DNA of 10,108 bases from a virus. The position numbers and the translations under genes were made by a program. The stretch is taken from the UHGV virus genome UHGV-0351028; one strand, written 5' to 3'. Below, piece after piece: positions 5,859 to 6,001 of this stretch. The notes under the pieces were generated by a model, which was given only the letters and a program-made list of their open reading frames with translations, had not been told where the DNA came from and searched no databases. Positions within the stretch are counted from its first letter, which is position 1. Each line of letters opens with the position of its first letter.

Positions 5859-6001
5859 GTGAACTTTGGGGTGTGGTGAAGGGTTCATGGACGGGAATAT
5901 GTCGCACGTAAAGCGGCGAGGCCTGCGGGACTATTGCCGAATTGAAGTAGGCCGAAACAGGTCGAAATGGGTCTCCCACCTACCACACCACCAAAGTTCA
6001 T
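5859..6001 (+). other. Long-range stem in the N leader (RNase III processing-site analogue)
   Basis: 5859-5878 GTGAACTTTGGGGTGTGGTG pairs with 5981-6001 CACCTACCACACCACCAAAGTTCATC (about 18 bp, one bulge). The 3' arm ends 2 nt before the N Shine-Dalgarno AGGAGG. Same arrangement as I recall for the lambda N leader. Confidence 0.6.

Follow-up and report, generated by a model that had tools for sequence, protein, structure and literature searches.

RNase III stems of the type found in the lambda N leader have been known since the 1980s. The lambda site, between nutL and the N ribosome-binding site, was reportedly described by Steege in 1987, Kameyama in 1991 and Wilson in 1997 and 2002. The lambda cuts presumably fall at +88/89 and +197/198, and the GU-rich 5' arm is what we take to be boxC of the lambda literature. 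Lambda N mRNA is positively regulated by RNase III (Kameyama 1991, cited in PMC9032294). N and the Nus factors at NutL, ~200 nt upstream, repress translation of N across a highly structured leader (Wilson 1997 and 2002, as summarised in PMC5725501), and RNase III cleavage parts NutL from the N mRNA and lifts this repression (PMC9032294 and PMC5725501). A boxC also occurs in the rrn leader, where it lies in the 5' strand of the leader–trailer helix and overlaps the RNase III site (PMC10250234); while the 3' strand is still to be made, an antitermination complex is thought to keep this 5' strand close to the RNA exit channel (PMC8632103). In the suhB 5' UTR, leader-bound Nus factors repress downstream translation through an RNA loop to RNA polymerase, as is the case for lambda N, and the authors explicitly compare suhB control with N autoregulation in lambda (PMC5725501).

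The window (the whole stretch of viral DNA that was analysed, 10,108 nt) comprises the immunity and early-left region of a lambdoid phage or prophage, with the leftward operon on the + strand, and contains a lambda-type cI gene (3251–3964), cro and the OL/pL region. The features of the pL/N leader that are used below are as follows.

5737–5765, + strand: pL promoter (TTGACA, 17-nt spacer, GATACT), from a promoter scan
~5772, + strand: pL transcript start AUCAGCAGGACGC, assigned by homology to lambda and from the mEp234 annotation
5834–5848, + strand: nutL boxB hairpin GCGCUGACAAAGCGC, the N-binding site, annotated as nutL boxB in mEp234
5854–5869, + strand: local alternative hairpin CCAAAG-UGAA-CUUUGG, from predicted folds and covariation
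5859–5878, + strand: 5' arm of the long-range stem, GUGAACUUUGGGGUGUGGUG, GU-rich and corresponding to nutL boxC
5879–5980, + strand: apical domain of type A, 102 nt, a structured, exchangeable module
5901–5905/5913–5917, + strand: apical hairpin
5920–5926/5957–5963, + strand: inner helix GGCCUGC/ACAGGUC, the part of the domain that is supported by covariation
5936–5938/5950–5952, + strand: apical hairpin within the inner helix
5969–5971/5975–5977, + strand: apical hairpin
5981–6001, + strand: 3' arm of the long-range stem, UACCACACC-A-CCAAAGUUCAU, with A5990 bulged
6003–6008, + strand: N Shine–Dalgarno sequence AGGAGG, read from the sequence, outside the stem and partly occluded
6014–6397, + strand: N antiterminator gene, 127 aa, HK97/933W/H-19B type, from the ORF list

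The pL promoter and the 5' nucleotide of its transcript are annotated in the mEp234 record, which is 98.8% identical. The boxB element formed a 5-bp hairpin in every fold and ends 10 nt upstream of the long-range stem. The N gene starts at the ATG at 6014; its product matches Pfam PF25694 (N_peptide, E = 1.7e-15) and does not differ from N of HK97 and mEp234 (100% identity). Lambda immunity is already found together with an HK97-type N in the GenBank entry of mEp234.

Several other elements of the window were recorded alongside the leader. Between cI and the terminator that precedes pL, where lambda has rexA/rexB, lie two overlapping ORFs of 159 and 310 aa (4114–5522, +). They match the two parts of PDC-M63, a candidate defence system in PADLOC (A, E = 1.8e-41; B, E = 7.5e-45), and the first ORF is Pfam DUF6932. 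At 5529–5548 (+) a terminator-like hairpin followed by a T-run resembles tIMM, and a homopolymer run (~5564–5580; about nine C and eight A) comes next, just upstream of the OL region. The Rfam model Lambda_thermo (the cIII thermoregulator) gave a full-length match at 6937–6995 (+; 88.5 bits, E = 5e-21); this element belongs to the cIII mRNA, a second lambda mRNA under RNase III regulation.

Secondary structures were calculated using RNAfold for 5771–6030 and for 5850–6016. In both folds nucleotides 5859–5877 were paired with 5982–6001, with A5990 bulged, and G5878–U5981 is a possible 20th pair. The original prediction had claimed a duplex of ~18 bp between 5859–5878 and 5981–6001, for which RNAfold gave 19–20 pairs and one bulge; the folding that it proposed as a check returned a stable helix, with pair probabilities of 0.86–1.0 in the partition function. 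It had also placed the end of the 3' arm 2 nt before the N Shine–Dalgarno sequence, which is correct when counting from 6001 to GGAGG (the gap to AGGAGG is 1 nt). An inverted-repeat finder returned the stem as two halves, 5860–5869/5991–6000 (100% complementarity) and 5865–5877/5982–5994. The segment between the arms (5879–5980) measures 102 nt.

The longest helix containing at most one 1-nt bulge was 20 bp, with 5859–6001 as the outer pair. The same statistic was calculated for 300 dinucleotide-preserving shuffles of the leader and had a mean of 11.6, a standard deviation of 1.45 and a maximum of 17, so that none of the 300 reached 20. Folding of the whole leader gave z = −3.6. An RNAduplex shuffle test on the two leader halves gave z = +0.6, and is uninformative because long duplexes with large loops dominate its score. 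In the minimum free energy fold, GGAC (5779–5782) additionally pairs with GUCU (6008–6011) right after the Shine–Dalgarno sequence and thereby closes the whole leader; this weak GGAC/GUCU pairing was also seen in the corresponding folds of most other HK97-type leaders.

The stem was compared with the N leader of lambda, in which the core CUUUGGGGUGUGUG is paired with CACACACC-A-CCAAAG. The core arms CUUUGGGGUGUG/CACACCACCAAAG are common to both leaders, with the bulged A at the matching place (written with the bulge, the shared core is CUUUGGGGUGUG/CAC(A)CCACCAAAG). In both phages the stem lies between the nutL boxB and the N Shine–Dalgarno sequence on the pL transcript, with boxB 10–17 nt upstream and the Shine–Dalgarno sequence immediately downstream. 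Helix length is similar to that in lambda (16–20 bp), and the enclosed segment is 90 nt in lambda and 102 nt here. Arms, bulged A and position thus bear out the equivalence to the lambda structure that had been proposed. The two leaders differ in the outer 6 bp, with compensating changes (GUGAAC/GUUCAU here; GAAGGC/GCUAAC, with an internal mismatch, in lambda). They also differ in the apical domain, which is unrelated in sequence, and in the N gene and boxB, which here are of the HK97/933W/H-19B type; rnc-, nutL- and N-dependent control of N translation is known for lambda only. On account of the match of the core to lambda and the same position, we read the element as an N-leader RNase III processing helix: it is probably, by homology, the RNase III-type processing helix of the pL/N leader and orthologous to that of lambda.

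The element has three features of the lambdoid N-leader helix class. It lies between boxB (5834–5848) and an N-family gene on the pL transcript, forms a long-range duplex of about two turns with arms homologous to those of lambda, and its pairing is kept by compensatory changes among 79 arm pairs. Other classes were considered in turn. No U-tract was found at the stem, whose 3' arm is followed by CAGGAGG and not by the tail of an intrinsic terminator or attenuator; the sole terminator-like site in 5480–6120 was that at 5529–5548, upstream of pL. No tRNA was detected in the window using ARAGORN and the Rfam tRNA model. A search of Rfam gave no match at E ≤ 1 in 5771–6016, and the sole confident match in the window was Lambda_thermo.

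The rrn leader–trailer helix is alike in several respects. In both, nut-like boxB/boxA elements are followed by a GU-rich boxC as the 5' strand of a long-range helix, and covariation supports the rrn helix, which has structured RNA in its loop and overlaps with a site for RNase III (PMC10250234). It differs in being 25–40 bp long, in enclosing 1.5 kb of 16S rRNA and in its role, which is in the assembly of ribosomes and not in controlling the translation of a gene further on. Between rrn (UCUGUGUGGG) and the present leader (UUUGGGGUGUGG) the boxC sequences are alike in composition and nothing more; the 5' arm UUUGGGGUGUGG does not match the rrn consensus UCUGUGUGGG, which is located 18–19 nt after boxA, and the helix that it forms encloses a 102-nt domain and not an rRNA. 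The stem works like the rrn leader–trailer helix but stands outside that family. The suhB leader has neither a long-range RNase III helix nor an N protein, and its distance from boxA to the Shine–Dalgarno sequence is short.

For the analysis of conservation, 18 leaders were assembled, with N of the lambda, HK97/933W, P22 gp24, 21/HK620, VT2-Sakai and phi80 types and that of an Enterobacter prophage; a genome-contig scan using N gave six loci that served as divergent cases. The leader is 99–100% identical in HK97, 933W, mEp234 and many Stx phages, which agrees with the arm conservation that had been predicted. Matches to the leader were found in 610 of 5426 complete E. coli genomes and covered at least 80% of its length in 334. 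The stem was the outermost long-range helix in the minimum free energy fold of all 18 leaders, with 16–23 pairs and one bulge or 1 × 1 mismatch at a constant position. BoxB lay just upstream of the stem, and the 3' end of the stem was 11–34 nt before the ATG.

Covariation was analysed on a larger set. Four pattern scans of IMG/VR for the core motif, allowing 30–153 nt between the arms, added several hundred loci; pattern matches were kept only where a pL-start motif was present within 450 nt upstream, which avoids circular selection by pairing. When the 18 leaders were included, the set comprised 80 distinct arm combinations; one has an inserted C and was dropped, and the other 79 were aligned. 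In the 79 arm pairs 93.9% of the cells pair, compared with 37–48% when the 3' partner was slid by 1–3 columns, and compensatory changes were found in nine of the 19 stem pairs. Doubly changed cells numbered 182, compared with 50 in shuffles. The covariation score was 0.392, with values of at most 0.084 for slid partners and none of 500 shuffles reaching 0.392. The central 9 + 11 nt of the arms are fixed by the search pattern in the pattern-derived sequences, so that most of the signal is contributed by the six outer and four upper pairs, together with one core pair. The arm sequences are related by descent and recombination, and the shuffle control accordingly overstates significance; the slid-partner control is free of this weakness. 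The covariation across lambdoid N leaders for which the original prediction had called was thus found, and the stem pairing is confirmed as real; compensatory mutations have preserved it in many lambda-like phages.

Retention of the stem beside a swapped N gene had likewise been proposed, and the stem was indeed kept with at least six N families and around many unrelated inserts. In some 21-type prophages and in PA2 it occurs without an N gene following. In the PA2 locus (L005, 500–880), what follows the stem and the type A module is a sequence resembling a promoter, together with matches to the Rfam families isrK (E = 9e-11) and C4 antisense RNA (E = 4e-14). The occurrence in PA2 without an adjoining N indicates that the helix is not strictly tied to the N ribosome-binding site.

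A local hairpin competes with the lower part of the stem. The sequence CCAAAG at 5854–5859, just upstream of the 5' arm, repeats the CCAAAG of the 3' arm and can pair with CUUUGG at 5864–5869 across a UGAA loop. This pairing uses the lower 5' arm and hence excludes the lower long-range stem. The hairpin was predicted in 17 of 18 leader families and was present as 6 bp in 39 of 47 unique contexts, compared with 7.9 in shuffles. It covaries, in that leaders of the P22 type have CCAAAC/GUUUGG and those of the VT2 type CCACA/UGUGG, and it forms in the fold of a transcript ending before the 3' arm. Its 3' end coincides with the 5' cut that would be made by RNase III (see below). We suggest that it may be a co-transcriptional placeholder which, after the cut, would cap the nutL fragment and aid release of the N mRNA.

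The ~100 nt between the arms are a structured domain and not a passive loop. Covariation of the inner helix (5920–5926/5957–5963) was assessed in 19 type A variants, including a divergent homologue (L436). Compensatory changes were found in three of the seven pairs (CG to UA; UA to CG; CG/AU/UA) and 93% of the cells pair. In the hairpin 5936–5938/5950–5952 one C–G pair is swapped to G–C in L436. Inner pairings proposed by RNAalifold (columns 27–30/72–75 and 36–39/66–69) showed one-sided changes only and were dropped; the hand-derived helix was preferred because it has compensatory changes.

The domain is also exchangeable. BLAST searches split the leader into a part (5771–5873) that is common to H-19B, BP-4795 and H-19B-like phages in which the insert differs, and a second part (5864–5996) with 91–97% identity to CL707, phi80, PA2 and ArgO145. 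CL707, phi80 and PA2 combine the type A module with different arms and different N genes; CL707 has the nutL and N of lambda. The inter-arm sequences from the IMG/VR pattern scans formed 126 k-mer clusters. In 41 of these the insert extends the helix by four more pairs (2.5 expected by chance), and eight of the 41 contain a T-loop motif; the remaining clusters are mostly chance pattern matches.

Some of the inserts resemble tRNAs. ARAGORN called tRNAs in four of them (Ser-tga in L133 and L165, Gly-ccc in L257 and Pro-agg in L261), and the Rfam tRNA gathering score was reached by three IMG/VR contigs (L257, 5485–5557; L261, 370–450; L391, 473–599). In the tRNA-like inserts the acceptor stem is the top of the conserved stem. 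In a larger family of inserts, type B (e.g. in Salmonella phage BIS08P22), hairpins that resemble a D arm and a T arm surround a long insertion. Neither the window nor the first eight loci contained a tRNA according to ARAGORN, and Rfam gave no leader match in the window or in nine related loci, except for isrK and C4 downstream of the stem in PA2. The conserved ACCA of the 3' arm was considered as a tRNA-like CCA end and was dropped, since the bulged base is G in the 21, VT2 and phi80 types. A link to the prophage anti-sRNA AgvB, suggested by the CA-rich and GU-rich arms, was dropped because AgvB lies in the late region.

A 96-nt P22 RNA named P22B, which ends 16 nt before gene 24, was reported in 2026 to accumulate in infected Salmonella and in vesicles (PMC13397905). 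It contains a CCAAAGCC motif resembling the 3' arm of P22-type leaders and is consistent with stable fragments arising from N-leader structure. Taken with the 41 helix-continuing clusters, the T-loops, the tRNA calls and the covariation and mobility of type A, P22B leads us to raise a tentative and rather speculative idea, namely that the basal helix is a universal cassette holder and that the apical RNA, of which type A would be one cassette, is released from the pL transcript early in infection as a functional small RNA. Release might be by RNase III or, for the tRNA-like inserts, by tRNA-processing enzymes. A search of the searchable literature found no description of modular or tRNA-like apical domains, or of the competing hairpin, in these leaders.

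The following sequence of events is proposed for the leader. The pL transcript starting at ~5772 would carry nutL, with the boxC-like 5' arm 10 nt after boxB. During transcription of the 102-nt apical domain the lower 5' arm may be held in the local hairpin (5854–5869). Once the 3' arm (5981–6001) has emerged, the 20-bp helix with its one bulged A would form and place nutL within a few nucleotides of the N ribosome-binding site. As in lambda, the N/Nus-modified elongation complex at NutL would then repress translation of N, and a cut by RNase III would separate NutL from the N mRNA and relieve the repression. By register with the lambda positions given above, staggered cuts are expected at 5869/5870 and 5992/5993. 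They would release a fragment of ~123 nt and leave the N mRNA with a 21-nt leader. The nutL fragment would then be capped at its 3' end by the local hairpin, which would also assist in displacing the remaining 9-bp duplex. For the present leader we infer the cleavage, the cut positions and the effect on translation from lambda.

An idealised substrate of E. coli RNase III has 22 bp, and in cells many substrates do not exceed 20 bp; cleavage leaves 2-nt 3' overhangs and is modulated by bulges close to the site (PMC3867540). The 20-bp helix fits the idealised length, and the geometry of the predicted cuts fits a 2-nt 3' overhang. The Shine–Dalgarno sequence had a mean unpaired probability of 0.54 when the full leader was folded and of 0.72 for an mRNA with its 5' end at 5993; over the ribosome footprint the values were 0.41 and 0.52, respectively. 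This occlusion is modest, so that tethering of NutL fits better than simple masking.

Several other explanations of the element were weighed. The helix might act by its structure alone, without RNase III, as a scaffold placing NutL beside the N ribosome-binding site, as a 5' stabiliser or as a translational operator that masks this site in part. It does end one base from the Shine–Dalgarno sequence, and the full leader lowers the unpaired probability of the ribosome-binding region as given above, but the Shine–Dalgarno sequence itself is outside the helix and weakly occluded. Covariation proves pairing and not cleavage, and certain base pairs near the cleavage site can leave a helix bound by RNase III but uncut (PMC3867540). 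The ~20 bp with a conserved single bulge are nevertheless typical of RNase III sites, and the arms are near-identical to those of lambda, for which RNase III control of N is reported (PMC9032294); action by structure alone is therefore unlikely. We find it highly improbable that the arms are conserved mainly as DNA, as boundary homology for lambdoid recombination with the RNA pairing incidental. The leader is a mosaic in which the BLAST pieces 5771–5873 and 5864–5996 join inside the arms, and at least 41 insert clusters lie between the same arms, as such a role would predict. DNA homology, on the other hand, needs neither complementarity nor joint change of the arms, and both are seen in the nine compensatory pairs of 19 and the 93.9% of cells that pair. 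The two ideas are compatible, in that selection on the RNA helix keeps the arms conserved and so allows cassettes to be exchanged.

That the region encodes a small protein, in the ORF 5866–6063 (+) or 5773–5979 (−), is hardly credible, although both are open in the window. In-frame stops interrupt the plus-strand ORF in five of 22 type A variants, and indels disrupt its frame in L436. The minus-strand ORF stays open in 20 of the 22 module variants, with stops in two, but its frame is lost in L436 through a 1-nt deletion, and its upstream third (5773–5858) is unlinked to the module in CL707, phi80 and PA2. L436 keeps the nucleotide blocks and base pairs despite the broken frames, the substitutions fit base-pair compensation, and RefSeq annotates no gene at either ORF. 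Neither loop ORF behaves as coding, and their dismissal as artefacts in the original prediction was sound. In the BP-4795 record (L007, 742–1191) the annotated N of 149 aa starts at an ATG inside the corresponding apical domain, which would favour a coding role. All relatives use the ATG at 808, which is preceded by AGGAGG and gives 127 aa; the annotated start lengthens this frame by 22 codons at its 5' end and is probably a misannotation.

The processing helix proposed here is thus well supported as a structure, and since it is the counterpart of the known lambda site it is not new. Within a leader that is otherwise hypervariable, nothing but the boxC-like arm and its complement stays constant. 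The lambda paradigm, in which N autoregulates through NutL and RNase III modulates the effect, would extend to the HK97/933W/H-19B leader type, which is carried by many Shiga-toxin phages and has matches in about a tenth of complete E. coli genomes. Because N times the early genes and then the toxin and lysis genes, the helix would be a reasonable target for studying or perturbing induction.
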